From positions 744,001 through 808,000 of the forward strand of contig JBDOQK010000004.1 in the NCBI GenBank assembly GCA_040437565.1: a DNA stretch of 64,000 bases. The letters run 5' to 3'. The notes below the pieces were generated by a model, which did no database searches, was not told where the DNA came from, and saw only the letters and a program-made list of their open reading frames with translations. Source of the DNA: Albugo candida (taxonomy: Eukaryota). The translations under genes were made by a program, and so were the position numbers. Positions 7,668 to 59,530 of the stretch are shown here, piece by piece; the stretch's first letter is position 1, and every line of letters starts with the position of its first letter.

Positions 7668-10552
7668 ATGGATTCGGAATCACAAGAATACAAACATGAG
7701 AGTGATACAGATCGTCCTATGGAACACTCGCCTCGTGGACGTTATATACGTGTACGCATTCGATTCTTTGGCGCGATTGTTTCCATAATTTAATATCCTG
7801 TTTGTGTCTATATCGATAGTTTGAAACAAAACTAGGCTCTGGGGCCTACAAAACAGTCTACAAAGCGTATGATACGGATCAAGGCATCGATGTGGCGTGG
7901 AATGCCATTGGTATTGGCCTTTTACCTAATACAGAGAAAACCAGAATCATACAGGAGGTCCAACTACTTCAAAAACTCGAGCATAANNNNNNNNNNNNNN
8001 NNNNNNNNNNNNNNNNNNNNNNNNNNNNNNNNNNNNNNNNNNNNNNNNNNNNNNNNNNNNNNNNNNNNNNNNNNNNNNNNNNNNNNGCCTACAAAACAGT
8101 CTACAAAGCGTATGATACGGATCAAGGCATCGATGTGGCGTGGAATGCCATTGGTATTGGCCTTTTACCTAATACAGAGAAAACCAGAATCATACAGGAG
8201 GTCCAACTACTTCAAAAACTCGAGCATAAGAATATCATCAATTTTTACGGGTCATGGTTTTGCAAAGAGAAAAACCAAGTCGTCTTTATAACTGAAATAA
8301 TGACTTCAGGGACGTTGAAATCCTATATCAAACGCGTTCAGTTTGTAAAGTGGAAAATTATCAAACGATGGTGTTTACAAATTCTCGAAGGCTTACATTA
8401 TTTGCACTGCCAGAATCCAGCCGTCATTCATCGAGATTTAAAGTGTGATAACATTTTTATTAATGGAAATACCGGTGATCTCAGGATTGGAGATTTGGGA
8501 CTCTCTACCCAGCTAGCTGTACACAAGCAGTCACGAGCACAAAGCGTACTAGGAACACCGGAATTCATGGCTCCAGAATTGTATGACGAAAGTTATGACG
8601 AGAAAGTAGATATTTATGCATTCGGAATGTGTGTTTTGGAAATGGTGACCAAAGAAGTTCCATACATTGAGTGCTTGAATCCAGCACAGATTTATAAGAA
8701 AGTGACAGCTGGAATCCGACCAAGAGGACTGAAGCGAGTCGTAAGTCAGGCAGCCAGAGAATTTATAGAGCTGTGTCTGTCTCGTGGAAATGGAGAAGTA
8801 GAAGTAACAGCAGAATATCTCATGTCACATACTTTTCTCAAGGCTCAAGACGATGACAATGACTATGTCAAACTCTTGGACGAAGATGAGCTTGCAAGAT
8901 TAGAGAATTCACAACACAGCGAGATTGTAGATGCTCAGAAGCTCGCATCTCGAGCCGGTATGGAACAGCATCTGATCGGCTCTTCTTGTCCGGCTTTAGC
9001 TTCGGATCAAATCCCTGTCACTGCTAAAGCCTTTCACGAATTGGGTCAGAGCGAGGCTGTCTCAGCATCCATTTTGAATGGTACATTGGAGACAGTACCC
9101 GAGACACAAGCTAGCGATCCAAAAGCAGGAGCACTTCCCGTTGATGAACCTTTCTCGGGAAACAAGTCAGATCAACAGAACGTAAAGCAATTTCTTGAAT
9201 CGTTACCCGGTAACGAACACAATGTTCAAAACACAAGGATCAACGTGATGATGGGTAGAGGTGATCGTCTGACGCTCGAAGATGAGCAATGTCAAGGTGA
9301 GGAAGATCCATCCCAGGGTGGCGATGCACGTTATCAATCGGAACGATCGACTAGATCTAGTGAGGATACAACGCTGACGTGTCCCGCCTCCGATACTCCA
9401 TCACTTGCCTCATCTCGAAGCGCTCATTTTGATAGTGGTCCGAGCATACAGACGAAACGGGGTCGTGGACACGATATCAAAGCGTCCAAAGATCCAGACA
9501 ATCCGCACAGTATTCTCCTGAATCTGCGTATCACGATTGATGGCAAGTCGAAAGAAATACAATTTCCATTCAATTTGTACACCGACAGCAGTCACGAAGT
9601 TGCTTGTGAACTTGCTTTGGATGTCGGAATTCTGGAACCAGAGCTGGAAGATATCTCAGACTCGATCAACTTTCTTGTGACCGAAGGAAAAAGCAGCAAT
9701 TTACCGCACGTGGACCAAGATGTGTGGGAAGAAGCTCCTGAACCTTATTCGTTTTCGTCAAAGCCGCTACCTCACGTGTCGAAAATGACATTTCACACGA
9801 ATCCGATGCAAGGAACGACGATGCTGAATGCACGGACACAAAGCCCGTCGTACGGATTACAAGACAGCTACGAAAGTCAGCGTACAAATGGATCGCATCA
9901 TCAGCGGAATCACTCGCTGCGAGGTGATGCAGTCTTGAACGAACCTCCTCCACGCGCTGGATCTGCTGTTCCATCTGATTTTCGTGAAGGACGGACTTCA
10001 CCGCGACGGAGGAGACCGCTTATCACAATGAGTTCGAGCGAATCTCAACGAACTTCGGACGAGTGGGGAGGACGTACATCGGATGAAAGGGAGCACGAGA
10101 TGGCGCTGAATGGCGACACGCTTTCACACTCATCAAGAGCGTACGCGTTTGACGATCACGATTCGAGTTTGGAGGCGGAAATACGTAGTGAAGAAGAGAA
10201 ACATCAACGAGAAATACAACGATTCCGTAAGAAGATCCAGGAGCTGGAGCAGAAGCAAAGAGCAAAAGCCAGACAAGAGCGATTGCTCAGTGGGGAAGAG
10301 TACGCAAGCGAATTGGATTATCCTCCAAGCGATCTCAATGTTTATGTGCGGGGTCGATCCCAGCCAATGCAACAATCACAGGCTCCCGCACTTTTCCATC
10401 ATCATCACTCTTTTCGGATGATGGGCAAATCTCCTCCGAAAGAACGGATGAATGGCGGATTTGGGCATCCCGGAGCACCCGCTGGCACGGATGAAGGCAA
10501 ACGACGACTTTCCACCGTATCGGCGATATCCTCCGAGGCTCTGCACAAGTGA
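7668..10552 (+). CDS. WNK: WNK-family Ser/Thr kinase
   Basis: Exon 1 MDSESQ...SPRGRYIR splices to FETKLGSGAYKTVYKA. VAWN has no subdomain-II Lys, the Lys being in the Gly-rich loop. IHRDLKCDNIF, IGDLGL and GTPEFMAPE present; later KEIQFPFNLYTDSSHEVACEL (CCT-like). Contains an artefactual 143-bp duplication and a gap. Confidence 0.95.
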
Positions 10553-10854: not shown

Positions 10855-11429
10855 ATGGTCGCGCCCTCCAGCCTCGAAGATATGACGGGAATCCGCCTTC
10901 ATCCAAGGCTCAAGTGAGCTGATTTCGATCTCAACGCATGTCATCTGTTGTAAAGATTGCGTTGTAGGCCGACGACAACGAAAATGAAGCACATTCTCTC
11001 TCAGATTTTGCAAGAAAAGCTGGAGAAGAATGTGTATCAAGCAGATAAATCGGCTGCGCTGACGAAAGAATTGACCGATGCGATAAAGACGCAATTAAAA
11101 GGTATGTCTTAACTGGTCCGAGTACGCGCTAATGGCGTTGGATTCCATAGCTGGCAACTATCCGCGCTTCAAATACATTGTGCAGGTGGTTTTGGGTGAA
11201 CAACGAGGCGAAGGCGTTCGGTACGTATCTCTCGTTCCGCTTTTGCTGATCCTGAAAATGTCTTTCAGAATGGGATGTCGATGCTTATGGGATGCTGGAA
11301 TCGACTGTTATGCTTCTGAGACGTTTGTTAATGTACGAGTGGCTGAGCGTGCTTCAGGATCACCACTAAGGCTTTTTTTAGGACAGCTTATTTTGCGTCG
11401 CAGTGGCGTATGCGGTGTACCTGTATTAA
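10855..11429 (+). CDS. Tctex-1 family dynein light chain (TCTEX1D2/DYNLT2B-like), 5 exons
   Basis: Spliced product ...KPTTTKMKHILSQILQEKLEKNVYQADK...YPRFKYIVQVVLGEQRGEGVRMGCRCLWDAGIDCYASETFVNDSLFCVAVAYAVYLY*, with four GT-AG introns. Confidence 0.9.
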
Positions 11430-11918
11430 GGAAAGAATGATTGCGTTCGCGTATAATTACGACGACATTACGATATTGTAGTGTACGTACTATTTGACCG
11501 ACAAAAGCAGACGAGGGGTAGTCAGATCAGATCATTTAGAAAATTAAAAATACAGAAAAGGTTTTGTGTTTATCGAAAGATTGAGAAAACAATCACTACT
11601 TCTTGTGTATCAAAAAAATTCTATCTTTCTGGAAGCAGCTGAAGAAAGGAGCTTTTATGCGTCAGGAGTCGAGACAAGACTGTTTTCTTTTTGCTAGTCT
11701 GATTGTTCATTAGTATTGATGTATCGAATGCCACACGTTTGCTCAAAGCAGTTTTCTTCTGCAAATAGTAACATATCGCTGGCAAGACAAGAACGTGATG
11801 GACAGAATCTTTGGCACATCTCTCGCGGTCGTGCATTTAGAAAATTGAAGAATCATATATTCAACTAGATTTATTTCAATTGTGAATTTTATCGGTCCTG
11901 CACAAGTTTCTCAGTGTA

Positions 11919-12146
11919 ATGTGCATGTCCCGGACTCAGTTCTGCCTGGTTATGCAAGCAATATGCTATAGTGTACAGTCATCACCGAGATGCAAAATCC
12001 CTGTAAATGGTATCATTTGTTTGGATGATGTGACAGAAGGAGACGTCGTATCATTGATAGAGATGGGAGAGTTTCAAAGATTCATGAAGTGCGTCACCTG
12101 GAACGAAGGTAATAAGGAATTGAAAGCCGTTGTCGACAACTTTGAT
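11919..12146 (+). CDS. Small putative secreted protein, version A (partial; truncated by the gap)
   Basis: Hydrophobic N-terminus MCMSRTQFCLVMQAICYSVQS; clear homologue of the ORF at 13128. No family recognised. Confidence 0.6.
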
Positions 12147-12246
12147 NNNNNNNNNNNNNNNNNNNNNNNNNNNNNNNNNNNNNNNNNNNNNNNNNNNNNN
12201 NNNNNNNNNNNNNNNNNNNNNNNNNNNNNNNNNNNNNNNNNNNNNN

Positions 12247-13355
12247 TGGAGAAGAATGTGTATCAAGCAGATAAATCGGCTGCGCTGACGAAAGAATTGA
12301 CCGATGCGATAAAGACGCAATTAAAAGGTATGTCTTAGCTGGTCCGAGTACGCACTAATGGCGTTGATTCGATAGCTGGCAACTATCCGCGTTTCAAATA
12401 CATCGTGCAGGTGGTTTTGGGTGAACAACGAGGCGAAGGCGTTCGGTGCGTATCTCTCGGTCCGCTTTTGCTGATTCTGATAATTTCTTTTAGAATGGGA
12501 TGTCGATGCTTATGGGATGCTGGAATCGACTGTTATGCTTCTGAGACGTTTGTAAATGTACGAGTGGGTGAGCGTGCTTCAGGATCACCACTAAGGCTCT
12601 TTTTAGGACAGCTTATTTTGCGTCGCAGTGGCTTATGCGGTGTACCTGTATTAAGGGGAGAATGATTGCTTTTGCGTATAGTTACGACGACAACACGATT
12701 TTCTTTCTATTTGAGCGATAAAGCAGACGAGGGGCAGTCAGATCAGCAAATTTAGTAAATTAGAATACAGAAAGGGTTACAAGTTTATCGAAGGATTGAG
12801 AACAGTGGCACTATTCCTTGTGTCAATAAAACTCTGTTTTTGGAAGCAGTTAAAGAATTAAGCTTTCATGCGTCAGGAGTCGAGGCAAGACTTTTGCTTT
12901 TTGCTAGTCTGATTGTTCGTTAGCATTGATGTATCGAATGCCACATGTTTGGCCGTAGCAGTTTCGTTCTACAAAATAGTAACTTTACGCTGGGAAAGTA
13001 AGAATGTGATGGACAGAATATTCGGCACATCTCCCGCGGTCGTGCATTGTAAATCTAAGAATCAGATATCCAGCTCGATTTATTTCAATCGTGAATTTTA
13101 TCAGTCCTGAAGAAGTTCCTCAGCATAATGTGCATGTCCCGGACTCATTTCTGCCTGGTTATGCAAGCAATATGCTATAGTGTACAGTCATTACCGCGAT
13201 GCAAAATCCCTGTAAATGGTATCATTTGTCAGGGTGATTTGCCAGAAGGAGCCGTCCCATCAATCATAAAGATGGGAGACTTGCACAAAGATATGGCATG
13301 CGTCACCTGGAACGAAGGTGATAAGAAACTGGAAGCTGTTGTCGACAACTTTGAT
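12247..13355 (+). repeat. Diverged direct repeat of 11021-12146 (~1.1 kb)
   Basis: Collinear by eye, with many substitutions and small indels in the intergenic part, unlike the apparently exact duplications at other gaps. Confidence 0.9.
12248..12654 (+). CDS. Second, partial Tctex light-chain copy (allele or paralogue)
   Basis: Same exons as 11022-11429 with near-identical coding sequence but substitutions in the introns; starts at the gap edge. Confidence 0.7.
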
Positions 13356-13972
13356 CTCAAGGTCCATGTATGGCTGCCTACGTTTTGAGTTAGTATCAAC
13401 CCTTCGGGATTCTTTTCGCTTATATCTGGTCGGGGAGGGATTCTGGGTAATTTAAATGTCTGTGAGATGAAGAGTTCATTCTTTGAGTTCATTCTTCATC
13501 TCACAGACAATTAGATTACCCAAAATCCCCCCCCCGACCAGATATAAGCGAAAAGAATCCCGAACGGTTGATACTAACTCAAAACCTAGGCAGCCATACA
13601 TGGGCCTTGAAAATCCATAAGATTGTACATGGTGAAAATATATTTGAAAAAGAGAGTTTGAAAGCGGTGCCATTGACAAATGGAAGAAATGTAACGAATA
13701 TTGCACATGTCCACTTTTCCATCCGAGATGATAACCTCGTACCGTCCCATTACATCGATTACACGGATGATATGAAACAAATACCTTTTGCAATGAGGCT
13801 AAATACTGATGGACTTGATGTAAATATCTATGCATCAGGATCGAAAGGAGAATCTAAACTCGACTGGACATTTGGATACAAGCAGTTGTGCTCACAAAAA
13901 GCTCAATTTATCAAACCGGGAGGCACCTTTCTGATTGGGCTGACAGAAACCCCAGCATCACAAGAATCTTAA
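13128..13972 (+). pseudogene. Small putative secreted protein, version B (~197 aa when reconstructed), interrupted by a foldback insertion; possibly rescued by splicing
   Basis: The 5' ORF (13128) and 3' ORF (ending 13972) join in frame as ...VVDNFD-L-KIHKIVHGE... once 13360-13610 is removed. Confidence 0.7.
13357..13610. mobile_element. Foldback/MITE-like element, ~250 bp near-perfect hairpin
   Basis: Left arm TCAAGGTCCATGTATGGCTGCCTACGTTTTGAGTTAGTATCAACC...GAGATGAAGA (13357-13473) is the reverse complement, with few mismatches, of 13493-13610 (...GGTTGATACTAACTCAAAACCTAGGCAGCCATACATGGGCCTTGA). Loop is 19 nt. Confidence 0.9.
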
Positions 13973-14859
13973 CATCAGCGAATAATCGCTACAATGTTTG
14001 CATGTTTCAATAAAGCTGGTCACTTTGGTTGATGGCCTCGAATCCATCCCAAGATTAGGTCACCTGGACTCACGCGCGCCTTCAGTTCTAATCATTAAAC
14101 CGGTAGCGAGAGAATCTTAGTTAATGCACTTTTACAGTTGCAATTATAGGAGTGCATGCTCCTCTTCTTACTTATATAACCAGAATGCCAATTTTTCTTC
14201 CTCAGTATCTATCCGCTATGCGAGAAAACCAAGAAGATAAGGGCATTGCCTCATACCAATCTGGATTCCTCAATGCGAAGGACATTCTTATGGCTTGCAA
14301 CAGACTCGAATCCACTCTTTCCTCTGAGCGCCCTCCATCAAATCTTACAGCTTGGTCTATTCTATCAATCCAAGACGCTCAGTAATCCGCCAAGATAACT
14401 GCTAATTTCCATAGCACGATACAACTGCAGAATTACATCCTTTTATCCAAAAAAAACCAAAGCTATCTTGCGCACAATTGCCAATAAGTAAGAGAACACA
14501 ACATGTCCTCACTACGATTGAATAGAAAGTGGACTTTTCCCTTCGCTTGACACATAGACTCTAGATCAGAGGCGAGATGACCACCGGTGCTGCAGCGGCT
14601 TATACTTCAGCTTCAAAGTCGACGGAGATATTCCTTGAACCTCTTCCTTCATGAATTCTTTGCAAGGGGATTTTAGCGTGGTGATGCAAATGGGGCCAAT
14701 CGTCACGCGTTCATGCTTCTAATGACATTCACAATTTTAATTTTCCGGATGAACCATTTAAAAAAGCTATCAGAAAATACAGAATCAACCATTTATTCTA
14801 TTACGCGTGGGACAAGCTGGCAAGACGGATGCTCGACCTGCGACTTCGTGTACCACTAG

Positions 14860-15913: not shown

Positions 15914-17283
15914 TCACGCCAGGATCAACGGTGTCAAAAGCAGTATGCATGTACACAAATCAGATACCGAGAGAAGCAACGCTCCATTATCTTCCTTACC
16001 AGAACCTGACAGCGAATCGTCCGAAACAACAGATTTCTTCTCAACTTGTCGATCACGCTGTGCTCCCGTGCATCCGTTCTCGCGTTTGCACTCACCTCCT
16101 GTCACATTTTCCTGACGACTTCTCTACCGACATCGCCACCAACCGAACCGTAACCCGAATTCGAGTCGGATTCATTCTCTGTACCACCCAATGCGTCCGG
16201 ATTGGTGAAATTGCTGAGACACGTTCCATACCACCACACGCTTGAGACGAGGACGAGTAACAGTATGCACATTGGTTTCCTGTCGATATTTCATCTAATC
16301 CGCATTGCTGAGAACGCATGTTGCATGTTGCAGCTCCATATTGTCCGGCATAGATACATTTATTGGGATCAATTTTTTTCTGGCAAAACTGGCCTTTGTA
16401 ACCACCGGTAGAAACAGCGAATCCACCGTCCGCTGGTCACTGGACTGACGACTTGAGTTTAGTGGCTGATGTATTACTTTCAAGGTCCGCCTTTTTGGTC
16501 ATGGTACAATCCACATCATTACTCGCCAATGAATTCTGAATTCACCGGAATGGCTTTCATCATGGAGGCGATACCCTTCTCGTATGGGTAAGAGAAAGGC
16601 ATGCTGGATGGTCCATTGCTCCACATTCGAGAGCAGCTATTCGCCAGTCTTCCTCCGTCGAGCGCTCATTTGGTACCAATATCTTTACGATTCTTGATGC
16701 AATCGCCACCTTCGCCTATCAAGCACTTTTATCCTGCAACATTTCAAGGTTGACATGGAAGGGAAGCGGAATGATTGAGAAGATGTGAAAGTTCTCCTGT
16801 TCGTCGATATCGAGCAACTTTTACCAGCTACAATCCTTCAGCCCTGTCGGGTGACGGAAGCTGAACGTAAGCGGAATCGGCTCCAGTGCACGCGCTAAAA
16901 ATCTTCCATGTTTCGGGAATAGTGAAATCGAGTCTTTGAGGCAAATTGGGGTTTTCCAGATATTGCTCCGTGTAATCCTGGCTTGTTCAGCACTTTCCAT
17001 CCAAGCTACAAACCATTCTACAGAAGCTATCAAGGTCCTTTTGCCCAACATGAAATTTCCTATTCCTGGCTTTCCATCATTTGTACACAATTTTGACGGA
17101 ATCTTGTCGAGTTGAATGCGTCTCAAAGAATTGCTTTGAATTTCCGTCACGTGAAGAAACTTTGGTTGTGCGACTCGCTAGTCGAGCACGAATTTCTGTG
17201 CCGCCTGAGCAGCTGCTTGGGTCAGCACCGCTGGAGATTAGTGTCTCTCCACACAAGGCGAAAATGAGACAGAAAATAAGCAT
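15914..17283 (-). pseudogene. Decayed gene for a Cys-rich secreted/surface protein (signal-like N-terminus, EGF-like segment, hydrophobic GPI-like tail)
   Basis: One frame from MLIFCLIFALCG reads protein-like through several stops; then GGYKGQFCQKKIDPNKCIYAGQYGAATC...CAYC; ends in a Ser/Gly linker and ALLLSVSDLCTCILLLTPLILA*. Confidence 0.5.
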
Positions 17284-17430
17284 AGCATCGATCGATACGC
17301 ATAGACGAAAAAGTAATAAAAAACGGAGCANNNNNNNNNNNNNNNNNNNNNNNNNNNNNNNNNNNNNNNNNNNNNNNNNNNNNNNNNNNNNNNNNNNNNN
17401 NNNNNNNNNNNNNNNNNNNNNNNNNNNNNN

Positions 17431-18481
17431 CTGTCGATATTTCATCTAATCCGCATTGCTGAGAACGCATGTTGCATGTTGCAGCTCCATATTGTCCGGC
17501 ATAGATACATTTATTGGGATCAATTTTTTTCTGGCAAAACTGGCCTTTGTAACCACCGGTAGAAACAGCGAATCCACCGTCCGCTGGTCACTGGACTGAC
17601 GACTTGAGTTTAGTGGCTGATGTATTACTTTCAAGGTCCGCCTTTTTGGTCATGGTACAATCCACATCATTACTCGCCAATGAATTCTGAATTCACCGGA
17701 ATGGCTTTCATCATGGAGGCGATACCCTTCTCGTATGGGTAAGAGAAAGGCATGCTGGATGGTCCATTGCTCCACATTCGAGAGCAGCTATTCGCCAGTC
17801 TTCCTCCGTCGAGCGCTCATTTGGTACCAATATCTTTACGATTCTTGATGCAATCGCCACCTTCGCCTATCAAGCACTTTTATCCTGCAACATTTCAAGG
17901 TTGACATGGAAGGGAAGCGGAATGATTGAGAAGATGTGAAAGTTCTCCTGTTCGTCGATATCGAGCAACTTTTACCAGCTACAATCCTTCAGCCCTGTCG
18001 GGTGACGGAAGCTGAACGTAAGCGGAATCGGCTCCAGTGCACGCGCTAAAAATCTTCCATGTTTCGGGAATAGTGAAATCGAGTCTTTGAGGCAAATTGG
18101 GGTTTTCCAGATATTGCTCCGTGTAATCCTGGCTTGTTCAGCACTTTCCATCCAAGCTACAAACCATTCTACAGAAGCTATCAAGGTCCTTTTGCCCAAC
18201 ATGAAATTTCCTATTCCTGGCTTTCCATCATTTGTACACAATTTTGACGGAATCTTGTCGAGTTGAATGCGTCTCAAAGAATTGCTTTGAATTTCCGTCA
18301 CGTGAAGAAACTTTGGTTGTGCGACTCGCTAGTCGAGCACGAATTTCTGTGCCGCCTGAGCAGCTGCTTGGGTCAGCACCGCTGGAGATTAGTGTCTCTC
18401 CACACAAGGCGAAAATGAGACAGAAAATAAGCATAGCATCGATCGATACGCATAGACGAAAAAGTAATAAAAAACGGAGCA
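17431..18481 (+). repeat. Apparently exact duplicate of 16280-17330 across a gap (assembly artefact)
   Basis: Identical ORF translations at offset 1151; both copies abut the 100-N gap. Confidence 0.9.
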
Positions 18482-34599: not shown

Positions 34600-34831
34600 G
34601 AGCATTGGGTTTGCTGATAGCTTGAAAGAGGCAGAGAAGGTAGAGATGTTGAACAAGCAGCCGTCGGCTTCGAGTCATTCTTCTCTCGTGACGTCTTCTT
34701 TGGTTTCACCATAGCGCACGACCAAAATCAANNNNNNNNNNNNNNNNNNNNNNNNNNNNNNNNNNNNNNNNNNNNNNNNNNNNNNNNNNNNNNNNNNNNN
34801 NNNNNNNNNNNNNNNNNNNNNNNNNNNNNNN

Positions 34832-43364: not shown

Positions 43365-44612
<1,248 letters not shown>

Positions 44613-53329: not shown

Positions 53330-53730
53330 AATACCTATTACAGAGAGTTCCCCAGCATGAGACATTTCTTGTGCTCAATCTGAGGTTCGAGTAGAGAAAT
53401 ATAGAGTAGGACAGACCATGTCCGAATGGATACTCCGCCAAACATGCATCACTTCCGCACAGCGTGTCGACAGGGGCGTTATAAGGAATACCGTTANNNN
53501 NNNNNNNNNNNNNNNNNNNNNNNNNNNNNNNNNNNNNNNNNNNNNNNNNNNNNNNNNNNNNNNNNNNNNNNNNNNNNNNNNNNNNNNNNNNNNNNNTGTG
53601 CTCAATCTGAGGTTCGAGTAGAGAAATATAGAGTAGGACAGACCATGTCCGAATGGATACTCCGCCAAACATGCATCACTTCCGCACAGCGTGTCGACAG
53701 GGGCGTTATAAGGAATACCGTTATAACAGA
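53330..53730 (-). pseudogene. Fragment of a GH3 beta-glucosidase C-terminal region
   Basis: IPYN..CLAEYPFGHGLSYSIFLYSNLRLS matches the GH3 (Y/W)PFGHGLSYTTFxYS motif. In-frame stop just upstream and no catalytic domain nearby; appears twice because of the gap duplication. Confidence 0.7.
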
Positions 53731-59012: not shown

Positions 59013-59530
59013 GCTATAGTACACGTTTATATTATATTATAATATAATCTTTATGATTGGTTAAAAAGAAGAGATGAGTTAAACCAATCTAATTCTAGGA
59101 ATATCGAAAATGACACGATCGACGTTTTTTCGGCAATACGCAACCATCGACAGCGAATTGGACGTACTTGCAACGTCTTCTCCATTAGATATATCTCAGT
59201 TTTCCAAAATACTCCAACTTGTCTGAGAATTTAGCTTTGTTGCTTCTATACAATTCAGAAATGTCACATAATGTATCGTAGATTGCCAGCGGACTCGAAG
59301 ATGACGATACGCTTCACAAGCAGTTTTACGAGATATTCGATCAATTCGAGCACCAGAAGTAAACATTCTACTGTCTCCTGCATGAATTAATATTTGATTT
59401 TGATAAATTATGCAGATCCATCAGTTGTGCNNNNNNNNNNNNNNNNNNNNNNNNNNNNNNNNNNNNNNNNNNNNNNNNNNNNNNNNNNNNNNNNNNNNNN
59501 NNNNNNNNNNNNNNNNNNNNNNNNNNNNNN

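Follow-up and report, generated by a model that had tools for sequence, protein, structure and literature searches.

How did a near-perfect foldback of 254 bp, at positions 13357-13610, come to sit within an open reading frame (ORF) of the 64-kb stretch of Albugo candida DNA that was analysed here, and that is called the window throughout? A previous interpretation drawn from the letters alone, here termed the sequence-only reading, took it for a Tourist-like MITE that had split a candidate effector gene and that might be spliced out of the transcript.

The hairpin, as that reading described it, is real. Its arms lie at 13357-13473 and 13493-13610, on either side of a 19-nt spacer, and when aligned to each other they are identical in 110 of 118 columns, with seven mismatches and one gap (93 % alike). 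An inverted-repeat search pairs them as two overlapping segments, namely 83 nt at 95 % and 42 nt at 90 %, and they are the sole inverted repeats of at least 30 nt within the window. The DNA fold of 13340-13630 reaches -124 kcal/mol vs -27.4 +/- 3.8 in 200 shuffles (z = -25.3), none of which (0/200) folds as well. The premature stop attributed to the hairpin holds too: the ATG ORF 13128-13388 ends at the TGA 13386-13388, inside the left arm, and this copy of the gene is truncated there. Codons of the 5' frame start at positions that are 0 mod 3 and those of the 3' frame at 2 mod 3, with 251 nt between the two.

The hairpin-bearing gene, the R copy, has an uninterrupted relative in P0038, an annotated Albugo candida protein of 245 aa, and the window also holds the beginning of a sister copy, the L copy, upstream of it. 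Each of the two lies directly downstream of a copy of a Tctex-1 gene, and the L copy is annotated as one uninterrupted ORF (P0038) in another assembly; L and R are probably tandem paralogues. The L contig ends with TTTGAT, just short of the point where the L and R structures diverge. Two more gene calls belong to the locus: P0001, from a separate public assembly, which runs from ~13456 through the palindrome centre and the right arm to the stop codon, and P0037, the truncated 75-aa call of the window itself. The features, in window coordinates, are as follows.

11919-12146, plus strand: 5' part of the upstream sister copy L, 76 codons, 97 % identical to P0038 residues 1-65.
12147-12246, no strand: assembly gap of 100 N, concealing the remainder of the L copy as well as the beginning of the second Tctex-1 gene.
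12247-12807, plus strand: second copy of the Tctex-1 family (dynein light chain) gene, PF03645, E 1.6e-09, its 5' end lost to the gap.
~12328-12375, 12446-12493 and 12558-12606, plus strand: introns of this second Tctex-1 copy, from a spliced contig (run X20, record 14).
13128-13355, plus strand: native 5' part of the R copy, 76 codons up to D-N-F-D, with a plausible signal-peptide-like N-terminus.
13356-13360, plus strand: first junction, CTCAA, through the end of which (13360) an L-type contig aligns.
13357-13473, minus strand: left arm, an inverted copy of the gene's own coding segment, collinear with P0038 88-125.
13386-13388, plus strand: premature TGA, met where the 5' frame enters the inverted copy.
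13472-13497, plus strand: palindrome centre, in which the 12-mer GAGTTCATTCTT stands twice (13472-13483 and 13485-13496).
13493-13610, plus strand: right arm, native coding sequence homologous to P0038 88-126, sharing the frame of the 3' part beginning at the C run.
13527-13535, plus strand: C run, 9 C here, which shifts the frame relative to P0038 and P0001 (both 8 C).
13611-13972, plus strand: native 3' part of the R copy, from tblastn with P0038, with the stop codon at 13970-13972.

Run X20 holds cDNA, and its record 14 contains three GT..AG skips of 48-49 nt in the Tctex-1 gene.

The origin of the two arms can be read from the comparison with P0038. This protein reads in a single frame across the 5' part of the interrupted ORF, a homologue of the right arm and the 3' part, and the right arm is therefore native coding sequence. 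The earlier supposition that the 5' and 3' ORFs are one gene is likewise upheld, P0038 carrying both in one frame, with 82 % identity over 100 % of the 3' part. In tblastn, residues 1-65 of P0038 fall on 13161-13355 and residues 96-245 on 13520-13969 (79 %, no gaps), both on the plus strand, and residues 85-99 fall on 13486-13530 in the other plus frame. Residues 84-125 match the minus strand at 13483-13358, where 32 of 42 residues are identical (76 %, E 4e-16); in other words, the left arm and the "loop", taken on the minus strand, encode the same residues as the right-arm region. The "loop" is not foreign, because 13472-13483, once reverse-complemented, specifies K-N-E-L, just as found before the copied segment in P0038. 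The homology, orientation and lengths of the arms are direct observations. Over the 38 residues outside the centre, both arms agree against P0038 at six positions, while P0038 is matched by the left arm alone at two and by the right arm alone at three; by this measure the arms are each other's closest relatives. Gene conversion between the arms of a palindrome could likewise produce arms so related.

In the R copy, 132 nt occupy the place of 59 nt in the relative, the new sequence being the reverse complement of nearby sequence and replacing the intervening stretch. The length of the lost stretch agrees between two sources. In P0038, D-N-F-D and F-I-S-Q are separated by 22 residues (66 nt), which becomes 59 nt after subtraction of the 5 + 2 nt shared at the junctions, and run X1 contains an L-type contig (record 3, 471 nt) that aligns over 13200-13360, continues with 59 other letters and then aligns over 13493-13744. 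Seventeen substitutions are listed for this contig between 13610 and 13714, of which 13 reproduce P0038 residues and three change no residue; the one left, at 13664, would give T where P0038 has R.

The first junction is CTCAA, five letters that occur both where the native gene continues (D-L-N in P0038) and in the copied segment's end once this is reverse-complemented; it would accordingly be a microhomology, and it is no TSD. The second, or return, junction is the palindrome centre, which carries a 13-nt tandem repeat. Both CTCAA and TCTT, the short motif at the return, are consistent with the letters of the window, with the codons for D-L-N and L-F in P0038 and with the positions, 13360 and 13493, at which alignment to the L-type contig stops and resumes. 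These microhomologies are in part inferred, because the L copy is known at the junctions from the protein P0038 and the X1 difference table and not from its nucleotide sequence.

We consider it very likely that a switch-and-return template switch, or a fold-back repair, made this inverted duplication in the downstream copy R. One switch-and-return event would have copied ~123 nt of R's own coding sequence, from the K-N-E-L codons to the W-A-L codons, as the reverse complement, and the inverted copy would have replaced the 59 nt of native sequence just upstream. The switch and the return would have occurred at the microhomologies CTCAA and TCTT, respectively, with the tandem repeat at the return; the same product would be expected from fold-back priming at the small inverted repeat AAGA..TCTT during the repair of a break. 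The outcome would be a palindrome of 254 bp in which the right arm has kept its native coding sequence. Both the molecular mechanism and the direction of the change, with R derived from an L-like ancestor, are what we infer from the comparison, and the polarity rests on parsimony because the searches described below returned no homologue beyond this locus that could serve as an outgroup.

The closest process in the literature is the four-point template-switch model (Loytynoja & Goldman 2017, PMC5453318; Monttinen & Loytynoja 2022, PMC8794818). In this model a single switch-and-return event puts the reverse complement of nearby sequence in the place of a stretch, with junctions at short homologies, and an inverted repeat able to form a hairpin arises because the copied fragment overlaps the sequence after the return point. 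The present locus shows such a replacement and such a hairpin, with junctions that probably lie at short homologies too. The model was made for "short" events, whereas the tract copied here (~123 nt, with a 117-bp stem) is much longer, a point that counts against a template switch. Here, moreover, the event lies within a protein-coding exon whose frame was destroyed, the return point has its 13-nt tandem repeat, and the polarity was assigned without an outgroup. Work on yeast and mammals has made familiar another kind of palindromic duplication, in which a double-strand break is followed by fold-back priming at a short inverted repeat. The locus resembles such duplications in that the palindrome centre coincides with a native inverted repeat (AAGA, 6 nt, TCTT) and the other end would have been rejoined at a microhomology; it differs from them in scale, with an arm of 117 nt as opposed to the usual kilobases to whole chromosomes, and in its spacer, which lies in the orientation of the inverted copy.

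The insertion of a Tourist MITE is not borne out by this comparison, in which the right arm is native (P0038 85-129) and the left arm its inverted copy. The trinucleotides TCA and TGA, once taken for a 3-bp TSD, are reverse complements of each other within the palindrome (13357-13359 and 13608-13610), not a direct repeat, and the TGA overlaps the native codons TTG-A.. of W-A-L-K, also present in P0038. The GG(T/C)CC ends that had been likened to PIF/Harbinger termini fare no better, since the right "terminus" consists of the W-A-L codons, which P0038 has as well, and inspection by eye found no direct-repeat TSD of 2, 3, 8 or 9 nt at alternative boundaries. As to copy number, BLAST of the 64-kb window with the left arm matches the two arms only, the next match being 19 nt long (E 0.067). 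When the whole of run X1 was examined at 80 % likeness, no loose ends at 13357 or 13610 were among those listed for its 18 records; loose ends at two short dispersed motifs were listed, so that dispersed sequence is detectable in this manner. Where an empty site had been expected, the related copy carries 59 native nt together with the right-arm segment, and no empty-site allele was found. Within the 64-kb window and the contigs of this one run, the hairpin is present as a single copy with no empty-site allele, the very situation that the sequence-only reading had named as speaking against itself. Its argument that deletion of 251 nt restores the frame is right as arithmetic but is not evidence of an insertion: 39 native codons would be lost as well, and the in-frame result is for that reason a one-in-three coincidence. 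Patterns of 24 nt from the arm and 33 nt from the ORF matched 0 stretches of a metagenome collection that is evidently without Albugo, and no literature on MITEs of Albugo candida was found, as judged by titles and the starts of abstracts. A published RepeatMasker table for A. candida lists 0 Tourist/Harbinger, 0 hAT, 0 PiggyBac, 468 Tc1 and 1,052 MULE elements (PMC13585763).

An older insertion might nevertheless be imagined, in which a foldback MITE entered before L and R separated, R retained the original element, L lost most of the left arm, and the right arm became coding. The foldback is built like a MITE, with a length of 254 bp, long inverted repeats as its termini and the trinucleotide T-N-A at both ends, and gene conversion from arm to arm could explain why the arms are closer to each other than to P0038, but we think this history improbable: a second copy was seen neither in the window nor in the X1 contigs; K-N-E-L of P0038 is collinear with the inverted arm and not with the R sequence before the right arm, which such a history does not predict; TCA and TGA are complementary, as parts of the palindrome; the table cited above lists 0 Tourist/Harbinger elements; and an ORF would have had to be regained in frame over 64 codons. 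The locus does resemble a MITE in a pathogen effector gene in its size, its long inverted arms, its position in a gene for a small, putatively secreted protein and the truncation of the ORF, and it differs in that the coding sequence of the host gene itself supplies half of the "element" and that no TSD, empty site or other copy was seen. Still less credible, in our estimation, is that splicing removes the hairpin, alone or within a longer stretch, as an intron, with R still making a shortened secreted protein. Some GT...AG pairs are in frame, such as those from 13362 or 13368 to 13621 and the one from 13318 to 13589, which has a TACTAAC box 11 nt upstream, and the stem would bring the intron ends together. 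Against this, about one third of GT/AG pairs are in frame by chance, AAG is a poor acceptor, and the branch box and TAG at 13572-13589 are altered in the L-type contig; the in-frame splicing proposed earlier also finds no support in the three neighbouring Tctex-1 introns, confirmed by RNA and only 48-49 nt long, or in the intact relative P0038, in which the right arm is translated. An assembly artefact, which the sequence-only reading had itself foreseen in the form of a chimera, is hardly conceivable. The surrounding assembly is poor, with gaps that have duplicated flanks, and the contigs of other runs break inside the arms, but a chimera would give identical arms and these are 93 % alike. 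Furthermore, the left boundary is crossed without a difference by X1 record 4 (13200-13432) and X14 record 8 (13226-13460), and P0001, which comes from another assembly, spans both the centre and the right boundary. For a stretch of which the hairpin makes up a fifth, seven of the 24 runs listed contain 0.90 or more of the words sampled; among these seven, contigs were compared for X1 only.

A question of a different kind is whether L and R might be alleles of one locus that the scaffolder placed in tandem, which would leave the inverted duplication unaffected. We see this as a real possibility, though distinctly the weaker one. Six of the seven 100-N gaps in the window have flush direct duplicates, five of them 100 % identical, and flush identical gap flanks are typical of unmerged contig overlaps; L and R are homologous right up to both contig ends, with no difference over the first 81 nt. 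The X1 depth is unequal, at 11-15 for L-type ORF contigs vs 32-38 for R-type ones, and X14 gave R-type pieces only. On the other hand, the difference between L and R amounts to 16-20 % both between genes and in the ORF, whereas the within-isolate heterozygosity reported for A. candida is 0.03-0.65 % and the between-race divergence ~1 % (PMC4384639). The L-like and R-like Tctex-1 variants are equal in X1 depth (32.9 of 66.4), and the 76,894-nt public contig that carries P0038 also carries relatives of other window genes. Within X1, depth is unequal over the ORF yet ~33 for both types over Tctex-1, which counts against our preferred reading. Run X19, considered as a sister lineage for its low word share, turned out to be the same sequence at low depth and was rejected as such.

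The gene itself is no more than a candidate effector. Oomycete effector classes are expected to bear motifs such as RxLR, CHxC or CCG after a signal peptide, and regular expressions for RxLR, CHxC and CxxCxxxxxG found none in the 5' part of R or in P0038. From the first ATG, the N-terminus has a hydrophobic core, with a 9-residue Kyte-Doolittle mean of up to 2.28; the annotated P0038 begins at a later ATG, without this core. Pfam returned nothing above threshold for the 5' part, the 3' part or P0038, and homology searches with both ORF parts at near length returned calls from the same locus only. Among 1.84 billion representatives searched, three reached E <= 0.001, namely the same locus and two repeat proteins; the latter (one with a K-V-E-Y-T-F-G-Y-K repeat, the other with leucine-rich repeats) were rejected as chance matches. 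The ESM Atlas gave no lead (best feature score 0.81, own model pLDDT 0.29, structural TM <= 0.41), and AlphaFold2 of P0038 without an alignment gave a mean pLDDT of 34.9. Judged by its sequence, the gene appears to be an orphan: small, fast-evolving, found only in Albugo candida and without a known motif. Both of its parts were under frame constraint, as L and R have 0 gap columns over the 228-nt ORF part vs 18 in the 462 nt upstream, and the L-type contigs of X1 have no indel over 13611-13972 and five indel events over 13973-14041, right after the stop codon.

The R copy would yield 77 native residues and nine foreign ones before the stop, and in the assembled isolate it carries the further frameshift in the C run, the length of which is polymorphic (X1 "left out 1" at 13530). 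Because of this truncation and frameshift, R is most likely a pseudogene, and its function has probably been lost. In the RNA run X20, record 16 covers 13756-13935 at a depth of 2.6 and no contig covers 13081-13719, and none of the runs listed as containing the stretch is marked as RNA; both results are neutral as to expression or splicing. If made, an R transcript would bear the 117-bp stem.

Such a stem invites another idea, which we regard as unlikely, though less so than the older insertion considered above: R might be a newborn hairpin-RNA gene under the gene's own promoter, whose diced stem silences the intact sister copy. Were this so, an oomycete would have built its own off-switch for a candidate secreted protein in a single step, and the locus would exemplify how a hairpin RNA can be born when an exon of its target is duplicated in inverted orientation. 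The stem is indeed long (117 bp, -124 kcal/mol), and its arms are homologous to the sibling gene, the presumed target. Rfam gave 12 sub-threshold matches, all below the gathering scores, 11 of them to ten unrelated miRNA families, and matches of this sort are expected of any long hairpin. In the plant model, MIRNA genes originate by inverted duplication of target-gene sequence. The locus is similar in that its stem derives from a gene with an intact sibling nearby and lies behind an existing promoter; it differs in that the stem has seven mismatches and one indel, with no sign of compensatory change. MiRNAs made by template-switch mutations (TSM) are described by Monttinen et al. 2023 (PMC10710096), and homologues of RDR and DCL are reported for Albugo, one DCL having altered catalytic motifs (PMC4791657).

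The locus illustrates that a long hairpin in a pathogen gene need not be a transposon and that an in-frame "excision" is no proof of an insertion; it is the comparison with the sibling copy that reveals half of the hairpin to be the gene itself. It offers an unusually large and clean example of what is very probably a single switch-and-return (or fold-back) event inside an exon, with junctions that are readable because an intact comparator lies nearby. A long stem homologous to an intact neighbour and placed behind a promoter is also the raw material that has been proposed for new small-RNA genes, and since stem, promoter and intact homologue are found together, this locus would suit asking whether Albugo makes such RNAs. 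For the biology of white rust its bearing is modest, in that many sequenced samples carry a probably disabled version of one of the two copies of this uncharacterised gene.

The downstream copy (R) of the orphan gene is interrupted by a near-perfect palindrome at 13357-13610, the only inverted repeat of at least 30 nt in the 64-kb window, with arms at 13357-13473 and 13493-13610 and a 19-nt spacer. One arm matches the other's reverse complement at 110 of 118 columns, with seven mismatches and one gap, and 13340-13630, folded as single-stranded DNA, reaches -124 kcal/mol against -27.4 +/- 3.8 in shuffles, none of 200 of which folded as well. The ATG-initiated ORF at 13128-13388 enters the left arm and ends at the TGA 13386-13388, and a second frame, open over 13487-13972, extends from the centre of the palindrome as far as the TAA at 13970-13972. 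Sequence and repeat search thus bear out the arms, spacer and stop described in the sequence-only reading, whose frame arithmetic for the two parts was also correct.

The palindrome is genuine. An assembly chimera, raised earlier as a possible objection, is ruled out by contigs from two public sequencing runs, X1 (record 4, 13200-13432) and X14 (record 8, 13226-13460), which span the left boundary with no difference from the window, and by P0001, a 171-aa gene call from the separate assembly of another run, which starts at about 13456 and continues through the centre and right arm to the stop. P0001 differs from the window only in a C run one C shorter and in TGG for TGA at 13468-13470; with both changes, in that assembly its frame stays open between the palindrome centre and the native stop. 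The C run (13527-13535) counts nine C in the window, against eight in both P0001 and an X1 contig. Among 24 listed runs, 16 contain half or more of the words sampled from 12900-14100, and seven contain at least 0.90 of them; X1, X14, X19 and the cDNA-containing X20 were compared with the window as contigs.

Of ten long ORFs of the window, four have letter-for-letter counterparts in the protein collection, and three of the four clusters concerned include named proteins of A. candida, a crop pathogen. Database searches used the two ORF parts separately, never as a mended ORF. Those restricted to 'near' length returned, with either part, calls from the same locus only, and a search of 1.84 billion representatives gave no real additional relative. 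P0038 emerged when the 3' part was searched at 'longer' length; it is an annotated 245-aa A. candida protein, 82% identical over the whole query and encoded on a 76,894-nt public contig. Its ORF is uninterrupted and of the type of L, the diverged sister copy upstream in the window. The tblastn placements of P0038 are as follows.

11952-12146, L contig: residues 1-65, 97%
13161-13355, R: residues 1-65
13486-13530: residues 85-99
13520-13969: residues 96-245, 79%, ungapped
13483-13358, minus strand: residues 84-125, 32/42 identical, E 4e-16

From this placement, the right arm is native coding sequence of the gene and the left arm an inverted copy of that sequence. The 'loop' belongs to the copy as well: 13472-13483, read in reverse complement, specifies K-N-E-L, which in P0038 are the four residues preceding the segment. 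The arms are therefore at odds with the excisable PIF/Harbinger-like MITE suggested earlier, and the proposal of an intron is unsupported, the right-arm segment being coding sequence in P0038. A BLAST search with the arm found no dispersed copy in the 64-kb window, the next-best match being 19 nt (E 0.067).

Run X1 allows this structure to be checked. Its R-type contigs are identical to the window at a depth of 32-38, and over the orphan ORF its L-type contigs reach 11-15. One of the latter (record 3, 471 nt) aligns with 13200-13360 and 13493-13744, separated by 59 unmatched letters, the number predicted from P0038 alone: the spacing from D-N-F-D to F-I-S-Q is 22 residues, or 66 nt, less shared edges of 5 nt (CTCAA) and 2 nt (TC). 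Of its 17 substitutions in 13610-13714, 13 reproduce P0038 residues (for example K->E, H->Y, E->R, I->V, P->T, L->W and N->R), three are residue-neutral, and one, at 13664, is discordant, predicting T against the R of P0038. L-type indel events number zero in 13611-13972 and five in 13973-14041, immediately past the stop, so that both parts were kept in frame during most of the L/R divergence. This is a real gene whose 5' and 3' parts form one unit, as first supposed, and P0038 runs uninterrupted across both.

At the interruption, 132 nt of R (13361-13492) stand against 59 in the L-type, and about 123 of the 132 are the reverse complement of the following stretch, K-N-E-L to W-A-L. The first junction would lie within CTCAA, which the native continuation (D-L-N) has in common with the end of the copied stretch (...TTGA) in reverse complement. 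This explains why TCA/TGA had been taken for a mismatched target duplication. The return junction would fall at TCTT, where there is a 13-nt tandem repeat (GAGTTCATTCTT at 13472-13483, repeated at 13485-13496). Such a geometry would match a four-point switch-and-return template switch with point order 1 < 3 < 4 < 2; in the model as presented in PMC5453318, the 1->4 fragment gives way to 2->3 in reverse complement, and a new inverted repeat results if 2->3 overlaps the sequence after point 4. The same product could arise during break repair, by fold-back priming at the small natural inverted repeat AAGA, 6 nt, TCTT, and the two mechanisms are indistinguishable here. Over 38 residues outside the centre, both arms agree against P0038 at six positions, and P0038 is matched by the left arm alone at two and by the right arm alone at three, a pattern that fits a duplication inside the R lineage after the L/R split. 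Divergence is 7% between arms and 16-20% between L and R.

The window contains seven 100-N gaps, six flanked by flush direct duplicates.

7987-8086: gap
12147-12246: gap, cutting off L
17331-17430: gap
34732-34831: gap
44058-44157: gap
53497-53596: gap
59431-59530: gap
11021-11600 and 12247-12807: Tctex-1 family dynein light chain gene, two copies (Pfam E 1.6e-09)

Five of the six pairs are 100% identical (122-1051 nt; e.g., 16280-17330 = 17431-18481) and are contig overlaps unmerged by the scaffolder; apparent tandem duplications in the assembly, including ORFs repeated across gaps, are therefore mostly artefacts. The ORF at 7820-10552, long and single-exon, encodes a protein kinase domain (Pfam E 1.4e-32) and spans a gap across which 143 nt of the ORF are repeated, so the true kinase is shorter than its 910-codon open frame suggests. 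The sixth pair, 11021-12146 / 12247-13355, has 87.9% identity and comprises a diverged L copy of the Tctex-1 gene and the first 76 codons of the orphan ORF, the L contig end (...TTTGAT) corresponding to position 13355 of R. The contig break here was probably repeat-induced, since the overlap begins with 81 identical nt. The second Tctex-1 copy has three GT..AG introns of 48, 48 and 49 nt, confirmed by an RNA contig.

L/R identity by region
Tctex-1 exons: 95-100%
Tctex-1 introns: 88-96%
Between genes: 82-84%, 18 gap columns in 462 nt
ORF codons 1-35 (13128-13232): 95%
Remaining ORF: 80.5%; no gap columns in the ORF

L and R are quite probably tandem paralogues. The other reading is that they are alleles of one locus set in series by the scaffolder, as the flush duplicates at other gaps, the unequal L-type and R-type ORF depths in X1 and the absence of L-type pieces from the X14 contigs would suggest. 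Their divergence of 16-20%, however, exceeds the values reported for A. candida in PMC4384639 (heterozygosity 0.03-0.65%; about 1% between races), the L-like and R-like Tctex-1 variants are equally deep in X1, at about 33 each (32.9 of 66.4), and P0038 shares its public contig with relatives of other window genes. At 12442-12583, X1 has the L-like variant only (depth 57). Its depth asymmetry over the ORF possibly reflects a mixed sample, polyploidy or a copy-number difference.

The effector identity of the orphan gene is unproven. Its protein matched no Pfam family, contains no RxLR, CHxC or CCG motif (as generally defined) and gave no lead in the ESM Atlas; AlphaFold2 pLDDT for P0038 is 34.9. 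Read from its first ATG, the protein opens with a hydrophobic core that could belong to a signal peptide; the public P0038 annotation, beginning at a later ATG, lacks this core. Between L and R, pN/pS rises from 0.4 in codons 1-35 to 1.2 in codons 36-76; a conserved N-terminus with a fast-changing mature part (pN/pS ~1.2) fits either a secreted, fast-evolving protein or weak constraint. Codons 1-35 are conserved at synonymous sites too (pS 0.09 vs 0.17), a possible sign of gene conversion or of an overlapping nucleotide-level signal. Nearby, 13006-13046 (41 nt) and 14271-14324 (54 nt) are short motifs present at other loci as well: contigs of X1, X14, X19 and X20 match them alone (81-90%), with flanks unlike the window on both sides, and one such contig (1,148 nt) comes from the RNA run, X20. 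A piece of promoter or UTR in common, or a coding motif of paralogues, could account for them.

The truncation expected earlier is confirmed, R stopping after 77 native and nine foreign residues, and the nine-C run (13527-13535) of this isolate is a further frameshift relative to P0038 and P0001; for both reasons R is most likely a pseudogene. We infer that a self-templated inverted duplication put one of the two copies of this lineage-specific gene out of action; the R palindrome adds a new example to a known class of mutation. The R locus may be transcribed, since an X20 contig covers 13756-13935 (depth 2.6, vs 11.1 for the Tctex-1 transcript) and X20 contains spliced cDNA (the Tctex-1 gene shows three exact GT..AG skips); DNA carry-over is the other possible source. 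RDR and DCL homologues, one DCL with altered catalytic motifs, are reported for Albugo in PMC4791657. If R is transcribed from its own promoter, a 117-bp stem with homology to the intact sibling would form part of the RNA, and there is a small chance that R is a newborn hairpin-RNA locus.
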